A stretch of 64,000 bases of DNA from assembly GCA_038256975.1 (NCBI GenBank), contig JBBSJU010000002.1, positions 65,064-129,063 of the forward strand. The letters are read 5' to 3'. This document shows positions 10,143 to 29,081 of the stretch, one piece after another. The notes under the pieces are model-generated. The model had not been told where the DNA came from, searched no databases, and saw only the letters and a program-made list of their open reading frames with translations. Origin of the DNA: Minisyncoccia bacterium (GTDB lineage Bacteria; Patescibacteriota; Minisyncoccia; Phycocordibacterales; UBA5272). Every line of letters starts with the position of its first letter. The first letter of the stretch is position 1. Position numbers and translations under genes: made by a program.

Positions 10143-10229
10143 GGAGGATTGGATGAGTGGTTTAAATCAGCGGTTTACTAAACCGCCGACGGGTAAAACT
10201 GTCCGTGAGTTCGAATCTCACATCCTCCG
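10143..10229 (+). tRNA. type-II (Ser-like) tRNA; a canonical 7-nt anticodon loop UUACUAA gives anticodon ACU
   Basis: GGAGGATTGGATGAGTGGTTTAAATC A GCGGT TTACTAA ACCGC, a 19-nt variable arm, GTGAG TTCGAAT CTCAC, ATCCTCC G. 7-bp acceptor, Ser-type D-loop (GAGUGGUU.AA), perfect T-arm. Confidence 0.7.
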
Positions 10230-10388
10230 CTCGTGTAAAAAAGCCCTAACAAGGGCATTTTTTATTGAGCGGAGGATAGAAAGTGCTTAATGCACTTTCG
10301 TGTGAGATTCGAAAAGCTTTCCGTTATTTGTGAGGAGCTTTACTCCGAACAAATCGGAAAGGTGTACTGCTCCTGTAAGGAGAGAAAT

Positions 10389-10403
10389 TCTCACATCCTC
10401 CGC
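10389..10403 (+). repeat. direct repeat of the tRNA 3' end (TCTCACATCCTCCGC), att-like, copy 2
   Basis: 15/15 identical to tRNA positions 10216-10230. Followed by CTAAGA, as in copy 3. Confidence 0.6.
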
Positions 10404-10468
10404 ACTAAGAACTTAGTATCGGCATGACCCTAGTACCTAAATTCGTAGATTTAAGTTAAAATTAAGCA

Positions 10469-10858
10469 ATGGAAAACCGAAGTTCACAAATTTGGATAGT
10501 ACTCATCGTTATCGCAATTATTGCAGGTGGTGCTTATTGGCTTGGAAATTCTCAAAATACCAACGACCAAACTATTGATGTAAAAACAGACATCTCTATT
10601 AAATCTACGACTGCACAGGTCGGTACTTTTTATGATGGCAAAGATGGTTACTCGCTTTCTATTCCAAGCGGAAATTCTTCAACATGTGTCTGGACGTATA
10701 CTGGAGGAAACGCAGCTATTCCATATTCAGAAACAACATATGCAAGAAGTGCGACTGAAAAACACACTATCTACTCTTATGATTACTACGATTGGAAAGT
10801 TTCTTGTGTAGACGATTTTGGAAATCAGTACACAGGTATATTCCCAAAGATCGAATAA
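10469..10858 (+). CDS. hypothetical secreted/membrane-anchored protein (within att-bounded islet)
   Basis: 129 aa with an N-terminal TM/signal helix (IWIVLIVIAIIAGGAYWLG). Thr/Tyr-rich. Confidence 0.4.
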   Translation: MENRSSQIWIVLIVIAIIAGGAYWLGNSQNTNDQTIDVKTDISIKSTTAQVGTFYDGKDGYSLSIPSGNSSTCVWTYTGGNAAIPYSETTYARSATEKHTIYSYDYYDWKVSCVDDFGNQYTGIFPKIE

Positions 10859-10866
10859 ATTATTTT

Positions 10867-11484
10867 ATGGAAAATAATACAGATGAAATAATCAATTTAA
10901 GCATTGAACAGTTTCAAGAATTTCACGAGAAATTAGGCTCAGAGAATTTCCAGCTCCAGTCTCGAATATTTGAAGATTACGGAAAAAAGAAATTGGATAT
11001 CTATTTTAAATCTATTGGGTTTACCACTGTCGTTATTGGTACAGCAGGACTTATTGCAGGATTCGGATTTACAGCAATCAGTCAAATTCAAAGCGAACTT
11101 CTCTTTTTTGTAGGAGAGGCCCTACTACTGAGTTCTATTTTCTATGGTCTATTCTGGATTCAAAACATATACCAAGGTGAATTTAGATCAATTGAGGAAG
11201 AAATAAAAAGACTCAGGGAGTTTTATGACAAAAGAAATGAAAAGTATATGGTTCTTTACAACGAGTGGATGTCGAAGAAAAGCATCACTAAAAACAATCT
11301 TAAGCAGCTTCAAGAGTTTGAAAACAAATCAATTGATTTGTTTAAGACTCCAACACAGGTTTCTGTTCCAGTCATTTACTCTCCCGTCATGTACGGTCTG
11401 ATGACGTTCGGTGCCGCGGCTCTCTTAGGTTCGTTCTTTATCTACAGTCTGTTATTCAACATTTGTCATCTCTTCTTTCTTTAA
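10867..11484 (+). CDS. hypothetical membrane protein (within att-bounded islet)
   Basis: ORF 10792..11484. ATG 10867 was chosen to avoid overlap. Two to three TM segments, with a coiled stretch between them. Confidence 0.4.
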   Translation: MENNTDEIINLSIEQFQEFHEKLGSENFQLQSRIFEDYGKKKLDIYFKSIGFTTVVIGTAGLIAGFGFTAISQIQSELLFFVGEALLLSSIFYGLFWIQNIYQGEFRSIEEEIKRLREFYDKRNEKYMVLYNEWMSKKSITKNNLKQLQEFENKSIDLFKTPTQVSVPVIYSPVMYGLMTFGAAALLGSFFIYSLLFNICHLFFL

Positions 11485-11746
11485 AGAAAGATATCCCGAC
11501 TCACATGCCTCAGCAAGACACTCCAAAAAGCGCTAGAATATCTTTATAAGGCTTGAGAGCGTGGGTACTGAACTCACATGGCCCGCCAAACCAAAATTCC
11601 ACACTTTCTTTAGGTGTGGAATTTTGTGTTTCAAGCGGTATGACGGCGAGATTCGAAAGCCGGACTGAAGCCACTATATGAGTAAAGCGAATTGTGGCGA
11701 AGGAGGCGGGGTCGCGCAAAATTTGTGAAGCAAATTTATGTGTGAC

Positions 11747-11767
11747 CGAATCTCACATCCTCCGCTC
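11747..11767 (+). repeat. direct repeat of the tRNA 3' end (CGAATCTCACATCCTCCGCTC), att-like, copy 3
   Basis: 21/21 identical to tRNA 10212-10232. It closes a roughly 1.35-kb segment that begins at copy 2. Confidence 0.6.
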
Positions 11768-12424: not shown

Positions 12425-13123
12425 TTAAGAACTTTTCTCTATCTCCTCAATTGACTTATTCCTGTGAATTATTTCATCGTTGCGAACTGAAAGGAAAAAT
12501 TCATACTGATTTTTTGGTTCACGTCCGTACCACTTCAAAAAGTCACTATGGATAGATTTGTTTTTAAGTTCATCGCCTCGTTTTTCTAAAAAGCGACTGT
12601 ATTGCTCAAAAGCATGACTTTCGAATAAGAAGTTAAGTTCATACGAGTACCGAGGGTTAATAACGTATAAAAAATATGACGCCCAAAAGTAAAAGAAGGC
12701 AAAAAGCATTGGGATAAGGGTGTGACGGATTATTCCTGCACATTCTTCTTTCTCTGCAAGCTTGGAAATGACGACCACGTGCATCGTCTCGTTATCCTGG
12801 GCTATTTGAGCAAATTGAGCCACATCTGATAGCTGGAGCGCCTTTTTCTCATGAGAGTAAAAAAGGGTTAAAAGAGTGTAAACAGACGAAGCCCAAGAAT
12901 GATAGGGCACACGAGCAATTACTTCAACCGAGCGAAACTTTAAATATGATGGTTCTTTTCCGTACACAAAATTTCCACACCACACAAGAAATTTTCCGAG
13001 TAAGAGCGGTAGCAGACTTGGTTGGTAAGAGTCGTAACTTGTTTTGTATTCTTTGAGGAAAGAATCATCATTAAGTTTTTGGTTGAGCACTTCAAGCTCT
13101 TCGTTGTTTCGCTGTAATTCCAT
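12425..13123 (-). CDS. alternative oxidase / plastoquinol terminal oxidase-like di-iron carboxylate protein
   Basis: Four-helix di-iron ligand pattern: EVIARVP (E), NETMH (E-x-x-H), FESHAFEQYSRFL (cf. AOX LEEEAIHSYTEFL), RNDEIIHRN (cf. AOX RADEAHHRDVNH). Confidence 0.5.
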   Translation of the reverse strand: MELQRNNEELEVLNQKLNDDSFLKEYKTSYDSYQPSLLPLLLGKFLVWCGNFVYGKEPSYLKFRSVEVIARVPYHSWASSVYTLLTLFYSHEKKALQLSDVAQFAQIAQDNETMHVVVISKLAEKEECAGIIRHTLIPMLFAFFYFWASYFLYVINPRYSYELNFLFESHAFEQYSRFLEKRGDELKNKSIHSDFLKWYGREPKNQYEFFLSVRNDEIIHRNKSIEEIEKSS

Positions 13124-22280: not shown

Positions 22281-22871
22281 ATGATAATCGTTGGGCTTGG
22301 AAATCCTGGGAAAGAATATGAATCTACACGACATAATGTTGGGCGAATTGTTGCGAGCTATGTTGCCAAACTAACCAAAGCTGATGTTTTCGAAACTGAC
22401 GGCATGCTTCGAGCGCAGAAAACAAAAACAATGATTGCCGATAAAAAAGCAATAATTGTGCTCCCAGATACTTTCATGAATCTTTCCGGGAAAGCAGTTG
22501 GTCCTTTGATTAAGTCGCCTAAAGATTTAACAAAATTAGTTGTTATGTATGATGATCTTGATCTTGCTCGGGGGACCTTCAAGATTTCTTTTAATCGCAG
22601 TTCTGGTGGGCATAACGGAGTTCAGTCGATTATTAAAGCAGTGAAATCCGAGGCCTTTATTCGGGTTCGGGTTGGGATTTCGCCAACAACAACGGGAGGT
22701 AAATTGAAAAAACCACTTGGTGAGGAAAAAGTAGGCAAGTGGATTCTTGGTGTTATGAAAGACGAAGAAAAAGATGGACTGAAAAAACTTTCAAAAACGG
22801 TCCTCCAGGCTCTCGAAATGATTGTTGAAGAAGGTTTACCGAAAGCAATGTCAATATACAATGGGAAGTAA
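22281..22871 (+). CDS. pth: peptidyl-tRNA hydrolase
   Basis: MIIVGLGNPGKEYESTRHNVG N-terminus and the overall Pth fold signature. Confidence 0.85.
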   Translation: MIIVGLGNPGKEYESTRHNVGRIVASYVAKLTKADVFETDGMLRAQKTKTMIADKKAIIVLPDTFMNLSGKAVGPLIKSPKDLTKLVVMYDDLDLARGTFKISFNRSSGGHNGVQSIIKAVKSEAFIRVRVGISPTTTGGKLKKPLGEEKVGKWILGVMKDEEKDGLKKLSKTVLQALEMIVEEGLPKAMSIYNGK

Positions 22872-22891
22872 AAAAGGGGCTATTTCAAAAA

Positions 22892-22977
22892 GAAGGTTTT
22901 AAGAAACACGCATAAAATTCTGGTGAATTTTTGCTACGCTCGCTCCGTCGAGTCTGCGCAAGTTTCTTAAAACCTTC
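22892..22977 (+). repeat. structured repeat element copy 1: 16-bp closing stem around a conserved roughly 54-nt core, 20 nt downstream of the pth stop
   Basis: Stem arms GAAGGTTTTAAGAAAC (22892-22907) and GTTTCTTAAAACCTTC (22962-22977). The core contains the palindrome AAATTCTGGTGAATTT. The core is about 85% identical to the reverse complement of 27572-27626. Confidence 0.6.
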
Positions 22978-22996
22978 TTTTTTCAACTCAAATAAT

Positions 22997-23030
22997 AAAA
23001 CCACCGATTTGGTGGTTTTATTATTTATTT
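22997..23030. terminator. bidirectional terminator between pth and rpsA
   Basis: AAAACCACC gattt GGTGGTTTT, then ATTATTTATTT. Confidence 0.65.
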
Positions 23031-23040
23031 CAGAAAAAGA

Positions 23041-24177
23041 TTATTCTTTTGAAATGTAGGTGAGCGTCATTCGCTGCTCTTTCGGTTCAAAGAATGTGAT
23101 TGCAAAGTCGTATACTTTTCCAAGCCCGAGTGATGATTTCATTTTTTCTTCACTTGCAAACTCTGAAATGTGTACAAGGCCGGCCACTCCTTCATTGATA
23201 GAAGCAAGCGCGCCATGTTTATTGAATTTAATCACAACACCTTTTACAATATCTCCTTTCTTGAATTTCTTTTCTGCTTCAAGCCACGGGTTTACAGTAA
23301 GGGCTTTTACAGAGAGTGATACTTTTCCATCCTTTACTTCGATAATACGGGCCTTTACTTTGTCACCGACTTTGAAAAGCGTCTTAGGGTCATCAATAAG
23401 TGACCATGACATTTCAGAAATATGGATGAGTCCTTCAAGTCCGTCTTCGAGTTCTACAAAAGCGCCAAATTCCACAACACCAGTTACCTTACCTTCAACT
23501 TCGTCACCAACGGCATATTTGTCCATAACCTCTGTCTTCTCTTTTCCGTCAACATCTTTTTCAGAGAAAATGAGCTTACCTTCTTTTGGCATTGCACCAA
23601 TGACGCACACAGAAATACGTTTTCCAATAAGTTTCTTAAGTTCTCGCAAGATTTTTTCTTTGTCGCCATCCATAACGCGAGGGTAGTTCTCGCTCTTAAG
23701 TTGTGATGCGGGAAGGAATCCAGCCACACCTTGCCAGTCAAGAATAAGTCCACCTTTATTTGCCTCTTTGATAACAAGATCAAATACGGTTTTTGCTTTA
23801 ATAGCTTCTTCGGCGTCACTCCACATCGCGGCCTGCTTTGCCTCTTTGAGTGAGAGTTCTACATGACCATTTTCATTTTCAGTTTCAATGATCTTCGCTT
23901 TAATAGCGTCACCAACGTTTATCTTTTTAATAACATCGCGAGCTTGGATGAACTCTGTTCCATAAATGATACCAACCCCATGAATACCAAGGTCAACATA
24001 GATTGCTGACTTCTTGATAGATACTACAGTGCCGTCTACAACGTCGTCTGCTTTGAGGCGATGAGGAGCTGTGTGAACTGCATTTTTAAGTTGTGTGTTA
24101 TTTGCGTCACCGTAAATGTTTGCGTTTTGTAATTCTGGTTTCATAAATATTAATTTGTGTTCTTCATTATTAAACAA
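23041..24177 (-). CDS. rpsA: 30S ribosomal protein S1 (four S1 domains)
   Basis: Repeated S1 OB-fold motifs (GTVVSIKKSAIYVDLG..., GKVTGVVEFGAFVEL..., GVVIKFNKHGALASI...). Confidence 0.8.
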   Translation of the reverse strand: MFNNEEHKLIFMKPELQNANIYGDANNTQLKNAVHTAPHRLKADDVVDGTVVSIKKSAIYVDLGIHGVGIIYGTEFIQARDVIKKINVGDAIKAKIIETENENGHVELSLKEAKQAAMWSDAEEAIKAKTVFDLVIKEANKGGLILDWQGVAGFLPASQLKSENYPRVMDGDKEKILRELKKLIGKRISVCVIGAMPKEGKLIFSEKDVDGKEKTEVMDKYAVGDEVEGKVTGVVEFGAFVELEDGLEGLIHISEMSWSLIDDPKTLFKVGDKVKARIIEVKDGKVSLSVKALTVNPWLEAEKKFKKGDIVKGVVIKFNKHGALASINEGVAGLVHISEFASEEKMKSSLGLGKVYDFAITFFEPKEQRMTLTYISKE

Positions 24178-24370
24178 AAAAATTCCTCAGGAAAAAGGAA
24201 TTGAGCTTTTTTCCTGCACGAGATGGATTTGCCTTGTCAGAAAGGGAAGAAGGGCAAATGGTTACAAGCTCGTGTTTGTTGTTAATTTGAAATGAACTCG
24301 GTAATTAAAGCACAGCTTCTAATAAAAGGCAACAAAAAAACCGCACATAGTGCAGTGTTTATTCTGAATT

Positions 24371-24401
24371 CCTCAGCGCGGTCCCCATGACCGCACTGAG
24401 G
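24371..24401 (-). terminator. hairpin (CCTCAGCGCGGTC..GACCGCACTGAGG) downstream of the GC-rich islet gene pair
   Basis: Near-perfect 13-bp inverted repeat just past the stop at 24409. A T-rich run follows on the minus strand. Confidence 0.45.
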
Positions 24402-24408
24402 AAGATTC

Positions 24409-24642
24409 TCAGGCAAGAATCAGACTCATTCGCTGATCCTGACGTTGCCCTGCGTTGCGTTGACGGGCTTCTTGGGTCAGGTTTTTCAGTGCCGCTTGGC
24501 ATCGCTGTCGATCATCAGCAGGGATCTTTCCTTGCAGGGCAGCATTCAGCCTTGCTGAACTCTCCGTGATCGTAGACATAGGGGTCTGTCCATTTACCGT
24601 GCGACCCTCGCGGATCGCTTGATTGAGAAGTTCGCGACTCAT
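24409..24642 (-). CDS. hypothetical small protein (GC-rich islet), translationally coupled to the upstream gene by an ATGA overlap
   Basis: The internal Met of ORF 24409..24750 sits exactly at the stop of the upstream ORF. The minus-strand sequence reads ATGA at 24639-24642. Confidence 0.4.
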   Translation of the reverse strand: MSRELLNQAIREGRTVNGQTPMSTITESSARLNAALQGKIPADDRQRCQAALKNLTQEARQRNAGQRQDQRMSLILA

Positions 24643-24908
24643 GCTTGTACTCCTTGCTGTTGGAACGAAAGTGCCCGTGCCGGGCGTTCCGAGGATGTAA
24701 GTCCCCGTCGTTGCATTTCCAATTTCAATACCAGACGATGAGCTTTCCACTCACGTAGAGTTTCGCTGGTGAAGCCCTGGGCGCCAGCATTTGCTTCGTC
24801 AATCTTGTCGTCGAGCGCACGATGCGCTGCGACAATACGGCTATCCGGCATCGCACCGGAAATATTTTGTGCGACACTCACAGCGCTTTCGATGGAGATG
24901 TTCGACAT
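24639..24908 (-). CDS. DUF465 (YdcH)-like small protein (GC-rich islet)
   Basis: 89 aa. AAHRALDDKIDEA...ETLREWKAHRLVLKLEMQRRG resembles the coiled DUF465 pattern. High-GC codon usage. Confidence 0.4.
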   Translation of the reverse strand: MSNISIESAVSVAQNISGAMPDSRIVAAHRALDDKIDEANAGAQGFTSETLREWKAHRLVLKLEMQRRGLTSSERPARALSFQQQGVQA

Positions 24909-25058
24909 GATTACCTCGTGAGCCCCTTTTGAGTAAACTACAATGTATTCGGGCTTTTAAATACAGAGTAGTCTTTATAAAGAACAACCTTTCCTTTATA
25001 CTACTAAACTCATTTTTGTAAAGGCTACTGTCCCCAGGTTCCTTGATACAATTAACGC

Positions 25059-26036
25059 ATGAAAAAGATTGTGACAATCGGTGGTGGTACCGGAAGCTTC
25101 ACTATTCTCTCAGGGCTCAAGGATATTCCTGACGTGCAAATTACTGCTGTTGTTTCTATGTCCGATGATGGGGGTTCTACAGGTGTTCTTCGAGACGAAC
25201 TCGGGGTGCTCCCTCCTGGAGATGTGCGACAGTGTTTAATCGCACTTTCTGAACATTCGGATATCGTTCGAAAATTAGTGGGATATCGTTTTGAAGAAGG
25301 AGGTCTCTCGGGTCACAGCTTTGGAAATATTTTTCTTGCGGCACTTGAGAAGGTGACAGGAAGTTTTATAAAGGGGATTGAAGTGGCAAGCGACATCTTA
25401 AAGGTTCGTGGGTCCGTTATTCCCGTAACGGATGATAAGGCTCATCTTTATATCACACTCGAAGACGGAACTCTTTTAAAAGGTGAGAATGCAATTAATC
25501 ACGCCGACATGCAGGCGGGCGGGGTTGCAAATATATATTATGAAACTAATGTTGTACTTAATGCCCGTGCGCATGATGCTATAGAGGACGCAGACGTTAT
25601 TATTCTCGGCCCAGGAAACTATTACTGCTCAGTACTTCCTAATATTGCGGTTTCTGGTATGGTTGAGGCTTTACAGAAAACAAAAGCTAAAATTATTTTT
25701 CCTATAAATCTTACAAACAAAAAAGGCCATACATTGTATTGGACTGCAAAAGGCTACGTTGAAGATATTGAACGGTATCTCAAAAGACCGCTTGATATTG
25801 TTTTGGTGAATAGCCTTCCACCATCGAAAGAACAGTTGGAGAAATATGAGCTTCAAGAGGGAGATGGGGTGCTTGTTGTCGACGATCTTCCTACGAACAA
25901 GAAGACCGTTCGATTACCGCTTTTATCTCAAGGGGCAGTTTCTTTTCAGAAGGCAGACGTTATTGCTGAGAGCCGGAGTTTTATTCGTCACGACAGCACT
26001 CTTCTTGCTCAAGCGATACAAGATTTGTTGAAGTAA
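25059..26036 (+). CDS. yvcK: gluconeogenesis factor YvcK/CofD-like (UPF0052)
   Basis: MKKIVTIGGGTGSFTILSGLK...TAVVSMSDDGGSTGVLR matches the YvcK N-terminus. Confidence 0.8.
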   Translation: MKKIVTIGGGTGSFTILSGLKDIPDVQITAVVSMSDDGGSTGVLRDELGVLPPGDVRQCLIALSEHSDIVRKLVGYRFEEGGLSGHSFGNIFLAALEKVTGSFIKGIEVASDILKVRGSVIPVTDDKAHLYITLEDGTLLKGENAINHADMQAGGVANIYYETNVVLNARAHDAIEDADVIILGPGNYYCSVLPNIAVSGMVEALQKTKAKIIFPINLTNKKGHTLYWTAKGYVEDIERYLKRPLDIVLVNSLPPSKEQLEKYELQEGDGVLVVDDLPTNKKTVRLPLLSQGAVSFQKADVIAESRSFIRHDSTLLAQAIQDLLK

Positions 26037-26084
26037 TAGTGCAGATGTACTTTTTCACGATTTTGACTTAGAATCCAAGGACAT

Positions 26085-26104
26085 GCCGGGGTGGCGAAAT
26101 TGGT
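26085..26104 (+). repeat. 20-nt duplicate of the tRNA-Leu 5' end (decayed tandem tRNA copy)
   Basis: GCCGGGGTGGCGAAATTGGT is identical to 26179-26198. The following 70 nt retain CACTTGCC..CAAG of an anticodon arm but cannot fold into a tRNA. Confidence 0.5.
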
Positions 26105-26178
26105 CAAAACGAACAATTGTCACTTGCCGGCAAGTCGGATGTTTTAACTCAAAACATCTGTAGATAAAAATAAATAAC

Positions 26179-26260
26179 GCCGGGGTGGCGAAATTGGTAG
26201 ACGCACTTGCCTTAGGAGCAAGCGAGGTGACTCATGGAGGTTCAAGTCCTCTCCCCGGCA
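26179..26260 (+). tRNA. tRNA-Leu (anticodon TAG), type II
   Basis: GCCGGGGTGGCGAAATTGGTAGACGCACTTGC CTTAGGA GCAAG, long variable arm, GGAGG TTCAAGT CCTCT, CCCCGGC A. Confidence 0.85.
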
Positions 26261-26279
26261 CAAAAAATAAAAAACAAAA

Positions 26280-26305
26280 AAAGAGTGCGCGCACTCTTTT
26301 TTTGT
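26280..26305 (+). terminator. intrinsic terminator after tRNA-Leu
   Basis: AAGAGTGCGCGCACTCTT followed by TTTTTTG. Confidence 0.6.
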
Positions 26306-26336
26306 TTGTGATAAAATCTGTTCAACCCGTACCAAT

Positions 26337-27506
26337 ATGCCACCAACACACGCAAAAAATCCATACGAGAATGCAATCTTTTGGGTTGATGTTGAGAAGA
26401 TTGTTCCAAATCCGTATCAACCTCGGCGTGAGTTTGATGAGCAAGCACTCAAAGAACTATCTGATTCAATTAAACAATATGGGATTTTACAACCACTTGT
26501 TGTTTCGCGTATTGAAAACTGGAATGAAGATGGAAGTTTGAATGTAAGCTACGAGCTTATTGCAGGTGAACGTCGATTGCGAGCATCAAAATTAGCTGGA
26601 CTCACACAGGTTCCTGTACTTATTCGTGTTGGTGATGACTCTCGTGCAAAACTCGAACTTGCTATTCTTGAAAACTTACAACGTGAAGACTTGAATCCTG
26701 TTGATCGCGCCAAGGCATTCGCACAACTTTCATCTGAGTTTAATTTAAAGCACGGTGAGATTGGGCAAAAGATGGGAAAAAGTCGGGAATATGTTTCAAA
26801 TACATTACGACTTCTTACTCTACCGGAAGATGTGTTGAGTGCACTTGCCACAGGAAAGATTTCAGAAGGGCATACTCGGCCGCTCATGATGCTTATCGAT
26901 CGTCCTGAAGAGCAACTCACCTTGTTTAAGGAAATGCTTTTACGAAAGATGACGGTGCGTGAAGCTGAAGGCATTGCACGACGGATTGCGTATGACAAAG
27001 TGCGCAAAAAGGATCGCTTCTTTGATCCAGATATCGCTGAAATTGAAGGCTCACTTGCTGAAACGCTGGGTACTCGAGTACATATTGAAAAGAGGGAAGT
27101 TGGTGGAAAAATCTCAATCGACTTCTTCTCATATGAAGAGTTGCAATCTATTTTAGATCACATCAAAACAGGAGCTCCTGTTTCAAAATCAGGCATGCGC
27201 GAAATGATTGATAGGGTGAATCCAAAAGGTATGATGGCAGCCAGCTCTGTGATTCCTGCGGTTGCTCAAGATGTTGCCCCAGAGCAAACAATTGTTGAAG
27301 CACCTCTCGAACATCCGATGGTTGCCACAAATACAGTTGTAGAAACAACACCTCTTGAAAACGCTTTGCCTGTCGAGCATCCAGTGTATACAGAAAGTCT
27401 TGAGCAAGAAGAGAATCTCATTGATGATAGATCAAAAGAAGAAGTTAAAAAAGAAGAGAACACAGATGATCCTGACCTATATAACATTAATAACTTTGTT
27501 GTTTAG
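26337..27506 (+). CDS. parB: ParB/Spo0J-family partition protein with extended C-terminus
   Basis: ParB box ELIAGERRLRASKLAGL and an HTH region. 389 aa. Confidence 0.75.
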   Translation: MPPTHAKNPYENAIFWVDVEKIVPNPYQPRREFDEQALKELSDSIKQYGILQPLVVSRIENWNEDGSLNVSYELIAGERRLRASKLAGLTQVPVLIRVGDDSRAKLELAILENLQREDLNPVDRAKAFAQLSSEFNLKHGEIGQKMGKSREYVSNTLRLLTLPEDVLSALATGKISEGHTRPLMMLIDRPEEQLTLFKEMLLRKMTVREAEGIARRIAYDKVRKKDRFFDPDIAEIEGSLAETLGTRVHIEKREVGGKISIDFFSYEELQSILDHIKTGAPVSKSGMREMIDRVNPKGMMAASSVIPAVAQDVAPEQTIVEAPLEHPMVATNTVVETTPLENALPVEHPVYTESLEQEENLIDDRSKEEVKKEENTDDPDLYNINNFVV

Positions 27507-27513
27507 ATAAATA

Positions 27514-27546
27514 AAAATACCGCCTCAAGTGCGGTATTTTTATTTA
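27514..27546. terminator. bidirectional terminator between parB and gatB
   Basis: AAAATACCGC ctcaagt GCGGTATTTT, then TATTTAT. Confidence 0.65.
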
Positions 27547-27552
27547 TCCCAT

Positions 27553-27645
27553 ACACACTAGTTTAGAAATGCCTTGCGCAGGCGGGCAGTCGAGCGGAGC
27601 AAAAATTCACCAGAATTTTATGCGTGCATTTCTAAACTAGTGTGT
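27553..27645 (-). repeat. structured repeat element copy 2 (inverted): 19-bp closing stem around the conserved core, 20 nt downstream of the gatB stop
   Basis: Arms ACACACTAGTTTAGAAATG (27553-27571) and CATTTCTAAACTAGTGTGT (27627-27645). The reverse complement of core 27572-27626 matches 22908-22961. Confidence 0.6.
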
Positions 27646-27665
27646 ATTTTGGATGAGAGAGCGTG

Positions 27666-29081
27666 TTATTTACTCAACTCTTCTTTCAACAATTCTTGGA
27701 ATAGCCCCGGATTACCGGATCCCTTAGATGCTTTCATACATTGCCCCACAAAGAACATCAAGATGCTTTCTTTTCCTGACTTAAATTCAGCAACTTGATT
27801 TGGGTTTGACGCAATTGCTTCACGCACAAGAAGCCGGAGAGCCTCAGGGTCATTTTTCTGAATGAGGCCATGCTTTTCTGCGAGTTCTTTTGGAGACATT
27901 TTTTCACCTTGTACAAGCATTGCAAGAATATCTTTCGTACCTCGACTTGAAAGTTCGCCCTTGTCTGTCATAAGGAATAATTCTGTGAGTGCTTCAGCAG
28001 ATGGAAGTCTTGAGCCTTCTTTTTGTAAGAGGCCAGGAATATCCACGGTGAGATAGTTTGCAGCTGTTACGAGCATCTCTTTTTTGTTTGAGATACCGGT
28101 GATTGTGTCAAAAAGAACCCCATATACTTCATCAGAAACCAACTGTTCAGCTGTTTCTGATTTTAATCCCAAAGCTTGCAAGCGTACTCGTTTCTGCTGT
28201 GGAAGTTCTGGAAGTTCTGAGCGGATTTTTGCTACATTAAATTCTGGTACTTGTGAGAGATAGAGTTTAGGTAGATCTGGGTCAGGGAAGTAGCGGTATT
28301 CTTCAGCAGTTTCTTTTTTACGCTGACTGAACGTTGTGTTTGTGCTGTCATCCCAGCCGCGCGTCTCTTTTACAAACGGAACACCATTTTCAATCATTTC
28401 AATTTGTCGTGCTGTTTCGTATTCGATGGCTTTTTCTACTGATCGAAATGAAGCAATATTTTTTACCTCAACATATTTTGAAGCGGGTTTATTTGGATCT
28501 TCCGAAACAGAAATATTTACTTCGATGCGCATCTGGCCTTTTTCAATATTTGCATCTGAGACACCAAGTGTCCGTAAAAGAAGCTGTAGTTCACGTGCGA
28601 AATTTCCGGCCATTTTGGCGTTTTTAATTACTGGCTCTGTTACGAGTTCCATGAGGGGAACACCGGCACGATTGAAATCAACAAGTGAAGAGCCTGTTCC
28701 GTGAGAAGATTTTGCGGTGTCTTCTTCAAGGTGAATACGAGTGAGTTTTACTCCCGCTAGTTCGCCACCAGAGACCAGAGGATATTTATACTGACTAATC
28801 TGGTACCCTTTTGGAATATCTGGGTAAAAATAATTTTTACGATCAAATTCAGTAAAGTCAGGAATGATGCCATTAACAGCAACGCCCACTGTAATAACTT
28901 TCTTAATTGCTTCTTTGTTGGCGACAGGGAGGCTTCCAGGCTGGGCAGTACACACAGGACAAACATTTGTGTTCGGTAGCTCATTATCTGGCTCATTTTT
29001 ACATCCACACCACATTTTTGAGGCGGTTTTGAGTTCGGTATGGACCTCGAGTCCAATGGTTGTGTAATACTCCTTTGACAT
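27666..29081 (-). CDS. gatB: Asp/Glu-tRNA(Asn/Gln) amidotransferase subunit B
   Basis: MSKEYYTTIGLEVHTELKT... GatB N-terminus and the C-terminal YqeY-like domain. Confidence 0.85.
   Translation of the reverse strand: MSKEYYTTIGLEVHTELKTASKMWCGCKNEPDNELPNTNVCPVCTAQPGSLPVANKEAIKKVITVGVAVNGIIPDFTEFDRKNYFYPDIPKGYQISQYKYPLVSGGELAGVKLTRIHLEEDTAKSSHGTGSSLVDFNRAGVPLMELVTEPVIKNAKMAGNFARELQLLLRTLGVSDANIEKGQMRIEVNISVSEDPNKPASKYVEVKNIASFRSVEKAIEYETARQIEMIENGVPFVKETRGWDDSTNTTFSQRKKETAEEYRYFPDPDLPKLYLSQVPEFNVAKIRSELPELPQQKRVRLQALGLKSETAEQLVSDEVYGVLFDTITGISNKKEMLVTAANYLTVDIPGLLQKEGSRLPSAEALTELFLMTDKGELSSRGTKDILAMLVQGEKMSPKELAEKHGLIQKNDPEALRLLVREAIASNPNQVAEFKSGKESILMFFVGQCMKASKGSGNPGLFQELLKEELSK

Follow-up and report, generated by a model that had tools for sequence, protein, structure and literature searches.

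Hairpins between convergent genes

Two hairpin elements lie between convergent genes in the window (the whole 64-kb stretch of DNA analysed here), one between pth (PF01195) and an S1-domain gene, and the other between gatB and parB, with pth and gatB as the upstream genes. Both hairpins are found where the original prediction had placed them, and they share the conserved core that it described. The core 28-mer ACGCATAAAATTCTGGTGAATTTTTGCT occurs exactly twice in the window, at 22908-22935 (+) and 27598-27625 (-), and has a count of 0 in 100 shuffles. The first 28 nt are thus 100% identical in the two copies, the difference being confined to the GC-rich tail. The fold z-scores against shuffled sequences are -7.5 (copy 1) and -8.2 (copy 2). 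As predicted, the two closing stems pair perfectly and are unlike in sequence, but the lengths given for them (16 and 19 bp) are too short, the real stems having 21 and 22 bp. With the boundaries originally drawn, each element is spaced 20 nt from a stop codon, from the pth stop (22869-22871) to 22892 and from 27645 to the gatB stop (27666-27668).

Each element adjoins a terminator hairpin, also as predicted, at ∼22997-23019 and 27513-27541. The bidirectional terminator hairpin at 22997-23019 is present in all relatives and is older than the element and not part of it; among relatives its stem undergoes compensatory changes (CCACC/GGTGG, CCGCC/GGCGG and CCTCC/GGAGG). The hairpin at 27513-27541, for which the fold was computed, lies in the interval between parB and the element and is likewise pre-existing, with a counterpart in the relative L161. 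A simple terminator scanner made no call at either of these hairpins, though the terminators are evident, and the consensus promoter and terminator scans are uninformative. Several Logan contigs stop inside the pth/S1 terminator (window 22997-23019, with counterparts in L161, L164, L167 and L169).

Searches with Rfam 15 returned only tRNAs for the window at the gathering threshold, and no credible match on the element for 22600-27900 at E≤10. An exact-protein lookup of Pth matched only the same strain (L040), and one of GatB gave no record. Elsewhere, the window (12425-13123) and L161 (184-876) carry a gene for an alternative oxidase (AOX, PF01786); the genome is apparently patescibacterial.

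Fold of the element

The element is built around a module of 53-75 nt with two hairpins in a three-way junction, in the order P1 - H2' - 2 nt - H1' - P1, read on the reverse complement of the orientation used in the original prediction. The closing stem P1 is copy-specific and ranges from a few bp to 47 bp (median near 17-20 bp), and short tails complete each copy beyond it. Hairpin H2' consists of a 3-bp lower stem, a 5'-G(N)A/GA-3' internal loop, an upper stem of 3-6 bp with free sequence, and a GNNG loop. Hairpin H1' has the consensus CAAAAAUUC-ANYA-GAAUUUU with a bulged A, or in full GCA-AAAAUUC-ANYA-GAAUUUU-(bulged A)-UGC. In four copies (L025 2080-2141, L134 1246-1307, L043 1671-1735 and L079 2611-2675) the H2' apex is replaced by long AT-rich hairpins of 11 to ∼20 bp; because of these apical insertions, the H2' tip is seen to tolerate large expansions.

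Copy 1 is an insert of 118 nt (22872-22989), with its structured strand (-) antisense to pth. The P1 5' arm (22962-22982) pairs with the 3' arm (22887-22907) in 21 perfect bp. Between them lie H2' (22937-22958), with its lower stem, internal loop, 3-4 bp upper stem and the loop GACG on the - strand, and H1' (22910-22934; GCA AAAAUUC ACCA GAAUUUU, bulged A, UGC). The insert ends in an element-borne tail, GAAAUAGCCCCUUUU on the - strand (22872-22886). Copy 2 is an insert of 120 nt (27546-27665), with its structured strand (+) antisense to gatB. The 5' arm of P1 (27551-27572) pairs with the 3' arm (27626-27647) in 22 perfect bp, enclosing H2' (27575-27598; upper stem of the GGC/GCC type, loop GGGCA) and H1' (27599-27623). 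The copy 1 tail is homologous to copy 2 at 27648-27665, the alignment having GCTNTNTCA in common. The P1 stem sequences of the two copies have no match elsewhere in the window, on which ground the idea that these stems are guides or local copies was rejected.

The fold belongs to one strand only, which at both flagged sites is the strand antisense to the upstream gene. Across 127 non-redundant copies, folding energy is better on the structured strand in 106, by a mean of 6.4 kcal/mol (Wilcoxon p = 7e-17). A rigid segment parser accepted only 21 of the 127, and minimum-free-energy parsing was used instead. In the helices around H1', G·U pairs number 327 on the structured strand versus 182 on the other. 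The dinucleotide-shuffle z-score is also lower on the structured strand in 84 of the 127 copies (p=1e-4); the G+T fraction is 0.503, so base composition is not the cause of the asymmetry. Of the 24 sequences of the tRNA-linked subfamily (class B, below), 22 have G·U at one particular H1' pair and two have A-U; read from the opposite strand, the conserved G·U would be an A·C mismatch.

Empty sites in close relatives

Contigs of identical gene order were located through their Pth homologues (94, 87, 85 and 77% identity), and empty sites were found on nine syntenic contigs from six relatives (L161, L162, L163, L164, L165, L167, L169, L170 and L171). The distance from pth to the S1-domain gene is 35-46 nt in all traced relatives versus 169 nt in the window, and that from parB to gatB is 43 nt in L161 versus 159 nt. 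In L161, a 94% relative, both sites are empty. At site 1, L161, L162, L164 and L167 have only GGAAAATAA running directly into TAAAACC (the terminator), likewise L169 and L171. Aligned relatives thus have the terminator alone, to which the window adds 118 nt (22872-22989) and 120 nt (27546-27665). The empty sites have neither P1 arm nor tail, so the hairpin, a tail of ∼15-19 nt and a stub of 5-8 nt came together. No element copies were found in the relatives' syntenic regions (eight of the nine searched).

All these relatives are without the element, and the 94% ones are closer to the window than the 77% one is, so that a single insertion at each site is a more parsimonious account than precise deletions that occurred repeatedly. 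Both flagged copies are therefore recent insertions that brought both stem arms with them. The original prediction had argued for structural selection rather than a recent MITE; its case against a recent insertion is not supported, in view of the absence of the copies at the syntenic sites of relatives with 77-94% identical Pth and of the arrival of the arms with the insert.

The insertion point is AAATAA by the stop codon, equivalent to TTATTT after the terminator on the structured strand. At site 1, AAGTAA (22866-22871) and AAATAA (22990-22995, +) flank the insert and may be a 6-bp target-site duplication. At site 2, TTATTT is present at 27540-27545 and 27666-27671, and the relative already has AAATAAAAATAA in tandem, which makes the case ambiguous. 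The flanks of other copies have no common target motif. The 20-nt spacing, earlier read as a sign of function for the upstream gene, stems instead from target preference and the element-borne tail: it is identical at the two sites because both insertions lie at AAATAA/TTATTT by the stop codon and the homologous tail is of fixed length.

A repeat family of Patescibacteria

A search for the core beyond the window shows that the element belongs to a large family. A scan of species-representative genomes (one per species) with a core 20-mer found 39 loci, ∼31 of which have the full element. All of these ∼31 are in Patescibacteria, and the remaining 8 of the 39 are bare chance matches. The carriers are labelled Paceibacterota, Nomurabacteria, Zambryskibacteria and Minisyncoccia, together with Saccharibacteria-labelled MAGs. 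A metagenome scan with the hairpin loop left free gave at least 120 loci; among the matches listed, the loop is AGCA in 87, AGUA in 15 and AACA in 5, and the ACCA loop of the window is rare (2 copies). A covariance-model search, which the original prediction had proposed, found further divergent copies in fetched DNA, including a third copy in the window. More than 150 copies were collected in total, three of them in the 64-kb window, and the density of the element is ∼1 per 20-50 kb. A scan of IMG/VR (2.9 million viral contigs) gave 0 copies. Literature searches by topic and by sequence string found no description of the element, which is a previously unannotated, widespread repeat family of ultra-small (CPR/Patescibacteria) bacteria.

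All copies are intergenic, and their orientation relative to the flanking protein genes is random, with 22, 21, 19 and 17 copies in the four classes. No recurrent linked protein family was found, the neighbours being housekeeping genes. The largest shared neighbour cluster (8 of ∼140 loci) involves the CCA-adding enzyme in a conserved tRNA neighbourhood, and others involve FtsA, RecG, BipA, FtsK, DprA, CysRS and MscL. No transposase, integrase or reverse transcriptase lies beside any copy, in flanks of up to 10 kb.

Covariation across the family

A hand-checked subfamily seed alignment (A6) has 98.4% of its cells paired, with both partners changing in 8 of the 17 pairs. In a larger alignment of 111 distinct sequences, fitted to the covariance model (A7), 96.9% of cells pair and compensatory change occurs in 16 of the 17 pairs (228 cells). 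The A7 covariation score is 0.332 versus 0.097 in shuffles, with 0 of 500 shuffles reaching the observed values, and only 27-49% of cells pair in slid-partner controls. An alignment of class B (A10) shows similar covariation, with one lower-stem pair being CG in 10, GC in 7, AU in 4 and UA in 3; H2' is only 75% paired there because the rows with 5-bp stems are out of register by one column. MAFFT alignments that mix subfamilies mis-register H2', and subfamily and covariance-model alignments were used instead.

The scan patterns fixed H1', so variants of this hairpin come only from model matches. These include AAUGUUU/GAACAUU, UUUUUC/GAAAAA, AAAUUUUC/GAAAAUU and AAAUUUG/CAAAUUU, and two neighbouring copies in L003 have H1' stems that differ yet are compensated. 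The element fold is under selection. The original prediction had reached this view from covarying closing stems, and its conclusion stands on the family-wide covariation; the pair of window stems does not count as covariation. The two stems belong to different family members, and their inner parts have homologues elsewhere (e.g. in L070). P1 arms differ between copies, the inner 10-17 bp being shared only within subfamilies. For annotation, this is a warning that the apparent 'covarying stems' of two copies can be different members of a mobile family.

Copies linked to stable-RNA genes

Class B copies combine a short P1 with a long H1' (GGUCGCG.../...UGUGACC). Each is found 17-100 nt downstream of a stable-RNA gene and without exception shares its strand, and at least 18 different genes are involved: tRNAs of at least 16 identities, tmRNA (L074) and 5S rRNA (L101). 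Rfam 15 found only tRNA, tmRNA, rRNA and a group I intron on class B loci. The L101 contig (1-1030) carries the 3' end of 23S rRNA with a group I intron, followed by 5S rRNA, a hairpin and a same-strand element.

Directly after the class B H1' comes a direct duplicate of the tRNA 3' end, starting from C56 of the T-loop and often reaching into the trailer (matches of 30/30 in L100, 39/39 in L116, ∼40 nt in L076, more than 41 nt in L051, 22 nt in L096 and 23 nt in L086). The 5' arm matches the reverse complement of the tRNA segment exactly, down to the discriminator, CCA and trailer bases, so that it was made at the DNA level and is not a tRNA minihelix design. Such a locus reads tRNA-T / spacer (often a terminator) / T' / element / T. 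Direct repeats of the tRNA 3' segment flank the insert, and the tRNA gene itself is intact; no integrase lies beside these repeats, and the spacers are mostly 17-100 nt. Tandem 152-nt units, each with a tRNA 3'-end copy, a 57-nt spacer and the element, directly follow tRNA-Ser in L114 (6359-6760) and L116 (270-650). In L060 (- strand, within a 184-nt interval between tRNA-Gly and the element) there is a second tandem element with the H1' UUUUUC AGCA GAAAAA, followed by the apparent 3' end of another tRNA.

The third window copy is a divergent class B member at 11648-11767 (+), detected at 11683-11751 (+) with 33.9 bits (E=2e-7). It consists of the P1 5' arm GAGAUUCG (11648-11655, +), an expanded H2' (11659-11707, +), a long H1' with the compensated apical stem AAAUUUG/CAAAUUU (11710-11747, +) and a trailing copy of the tRNA-Ser 3' end, CGAATCTCACATCCTCCGCTC (11747-11767, +). 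The tRNA-Ser gene itself lies at 10143-10230 (+), and its 3' end is duplicated behind both copy 3 and a further insert. In L166, a 77% relative, the bare tRNA-Ser is followed directly by an acetyltransferase gene. ARAGORN assigns to this tRNA-Ser the anticodon ACT, which is unusual for bacteria; L166 has the same gene.

The further insert (insert X, 10300-10404) is a different, unrelated two-hairpin sequence that contains GGTGTACTGCTCCTGTAAGGAG and is flanked by two copies of the tRNA-Ser 3' end, one inverted and one direct, which is the plan of the flagged family. Relatives of insert X are present in L006, L039 and L131, and a hybrid of X and the element in L056. Two overlapping ORFs of 129 and 230 aa (10469-11484), neither with a Pfam match, lie between the tRNA-Ser 3'-end repeats; this arrangement suggests a small integrated islet.

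Two groups of copies have a bearing on possible host roles. Copies linked to tRNA-Arg(tcg) are kept in five lineages, whose adjoining CCA-adding enzymes are only 53-69% identical, and in each lineage the H2' stem is different yet complementary. This pattern suggests long-term selection in place and a host-level function over pure selfishness. Other copies lie inside tight tRNA operons, as in L147 (tRNA-Lys, 24 nt, the element, 1 nt, tRNA-Leu), with the same order in L012 and L045. Judging from this layout, tRNA-operon copies (e.g. in L147 and L012) would be transcribed, and tRNA-processing enzymes could release them.

Possible nature of the element

The flagged hairpins are probably, though far from certainly, copies of a non-autonomous mobile element of Patescibacteria (CPR), in which the strand-specific fold is the selected feature. 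The folded single strand, as ssDNA or as a transcript, would be what an enzyme encoded elsewhere recognises and then copies or integrates, and selection for recognition would maintain the structure. P1 would be perfect because the copies are young, and possibly also through mutual correction of the hairpin arms during replication. The tRNA-linked layout may be the product of a small circle or folded strand exchanging within the tRNA 3' segment. Possible routes include a DDE-type mechanism with a 6-bp duplication, an IS200/IS605-like single-strand mechanism, and attC/CTX-like exchange of a folded strand. Against the mobile reading, searches found neither an autonomous parent element nor an identical donor copy, only one of the two sites has a visible target-site duplication, and terminal inverted repeats are not conserved between copies. 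The lack of linked enzyme genes and of copies in IMG/VR also counts against it, as does the retention of the copies linked to tRNA-Arg(tcg).

A possible, although distinctly less likely, identity for the element is that of a host small RNA, or of the RNA component of an RNP. It would originate from stable-RNA operons (tRNA, tmRNA, 5S), from which RNase P, RNase Z or RNase III would free it, and copies of the flagged type would be dispersed extra genes or retro-copies. In favour of this reading, the structured strand is always that of the adjoining stable-RNA gene, copies occur within tight tRNA operons (L147, L012, L045), and orthologous copies are retained with compensatory change across lineages 53-69% identical; the near-invariant H1', the conserved G·U and the tandem G·A loop are typical of protein-bound RNAs. 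However, the window copies lie behind terminators on the structured strand, with no promoter found in the (itself uninformative) consensus scan, and they are dispensable in close relatives. Copy number and stems also vary widely, and the 5' arm copies the target past the structural boundaries of the tRNA, which points to an origin at the DNA level. The mobile-element and small-RNA readings are not mutually exclusive.

A more specific and rather improbable scheme is a gene-less integrative element, in which the three-way junction is a scaffold and the closing stem reproduces both strands of the target (e.g. the last ∼21 nt of a tRNA gene plus trailer), so that the folded strand mimics the double-stranded target. 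A host recombinase would accept the mimic, and one strand exchange would integrate the folded strand. The logic would resemble that of attC or CTX, except that the stem would be re-writable and would copy its target, and Patescibacteria would use it widely. In a variant, the scaffold would double as a small RNA matured by the tRNA-processing machinery.

The hairpins were first read as a cis-acting element in the 3' UTRs of pth and gatB, with a role in stability or processing, or as a terminator-associated sRNA for these genes; this is now very unlikely. Both copies do lie between the stop codon and the terminator of these genes, and are thus probably co-transcribed with them, and a T-run follows the P1 hairpin of copy 1 on both strands. 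Nevertheless, the fold is specified on the antisense strand, the same intergenic regions of relatives with 77-94% identical Pth are without the element, orientation to protein genes is random across the family, and the fixed 20-nt spacing comes from the element's own tail. Hardly any weight can be given to a double-stranded site for a dimeric protein (a palindromic operator, a parS- or dif-like site, or a DNA-uptake signal), in spite of the perfect palindrome in H1 (AAAATTC-N4-GAATTTT), its high sequence conservation and the position of copy 2 next to parB, since strand-specific G·U pairs and a bulged A are meaningless in duplex DNA, adjacent copies in L003 have different, compensated H1' stems, H2' keeps its pairing with free sequence, and a density of ∼1 per 20-50 kb is far under that of uptake signals.

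Several known structures were rejected by inspection: hammerhead, K-turn, group II intron D5/D6, SRP RNA and tmRNA; parS or dif sites; and a primer-binding site for mature tRNA, the arm pairing with the genomic trailer and not with CCA.

Comparison with known mobile and structured repeats

The element resembles bacterial MITEs and interspersed palindromes (Correia, ERIC, BOX/RUP/SPRITE, Coxiella QMITE, Rickettsia RPE and bcr1) in being short, non-coding, multi-copy and located in AT-rich intergenic regions, in having filled and empty sites between strains, and in forming stable stem-loops in transcripts or strands. Compensatory changes have been reported for ERIC and for bcr1, an interspersed repeat of B. 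cereus. With its small, non-coding, multi-copy inserts (118-120 nt) and presence/absence polymorphism, the element shares these features of a MITE, but it lacks terminal inverted repeats common to all members. The arrangement is reversed compared with a MITE that has family-wide terminal inverted repeats: conservation here is in the apex, and it is the long inverted repeat that is copy-specific. It differs from MITEs also in that the parent IS is not known, a target duplication is seen at one site only, and the 3' ends of tRNAs are duplicated by one subfamily. According to a review (PMC10969869), QMITE2 is located in 3' UTRs and Correia terminal inverted repeats are cut by RNase III; Patescibacteria are absent from its taxonomic list of MITE-like repeats. 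Our search for literature that mentions Patescibacteria together with such repeats found none.

Integron attC sites, the attP hairpin of CTX phage, the ends of IS200/IS605 elements, and REP/REPIN sequences with their RAYT are all folded single-strand sites. They have strand-specific hairpins with extrahelical bases, a structure more conserved than the sequence, and an enzyme encoded elsewhere. The element is like them in its strand-specific fold with a bulged base. Single strand exchange of such a folded strand would give the order tRNA end, spacer, inverted copy, element, tRNA end. Unlike for attC, IS200 and REP-RAYT, no integrase or HUH transposase was found near the element. An attC site has conserved outer boxes and a variable centre, and the layout here is the opposite, with the conserved module inside and the variable stem outside. 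In REPINs the arms are the conserved part, whereas here they are copy-specific.

Integrative elements that target tRNA and tmRNA genes, a subject treated by Williams in 2002, reportedly leave attL/attR repeats of the tRNA 3' end, with the T-loop as one sublocation. The likeness extends to the direct repeats from T-loop C56 past the tRNA 3' end, the use of tmRNA and the intact tRNA gene. However, the 'island' is only ∼90-200 nt here and has no integrase (although the islet in the window carries two ORFs), and there is an extra, inverted copy of the target, which forms a stem with the displaced tRNA end. Three points set the element apart: the conserved apex combined with copy-specific stems, the lack of a linked enzyme, and the direct plus inverted duplication of tRNA 3' ends.

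Significance for Patescibacteria

Genomes of Patescibacteria are tiny and streamlined and are thought to be poor in repeats. The element is a widespread structured repeat family with covariation-grade support and no Rfam entry, and it is still inserting in a lineage known only from metagenomes. The 3' ends of tRNA, tmRNA and 5S genes are its hot spots, and it is a marker for strain-level genome dynamics. If it is true that the stem copies the target, this would be a new way to specify integration sites. The family would add a new class of mobile or RNA element to a very large share of bacterial diversity.
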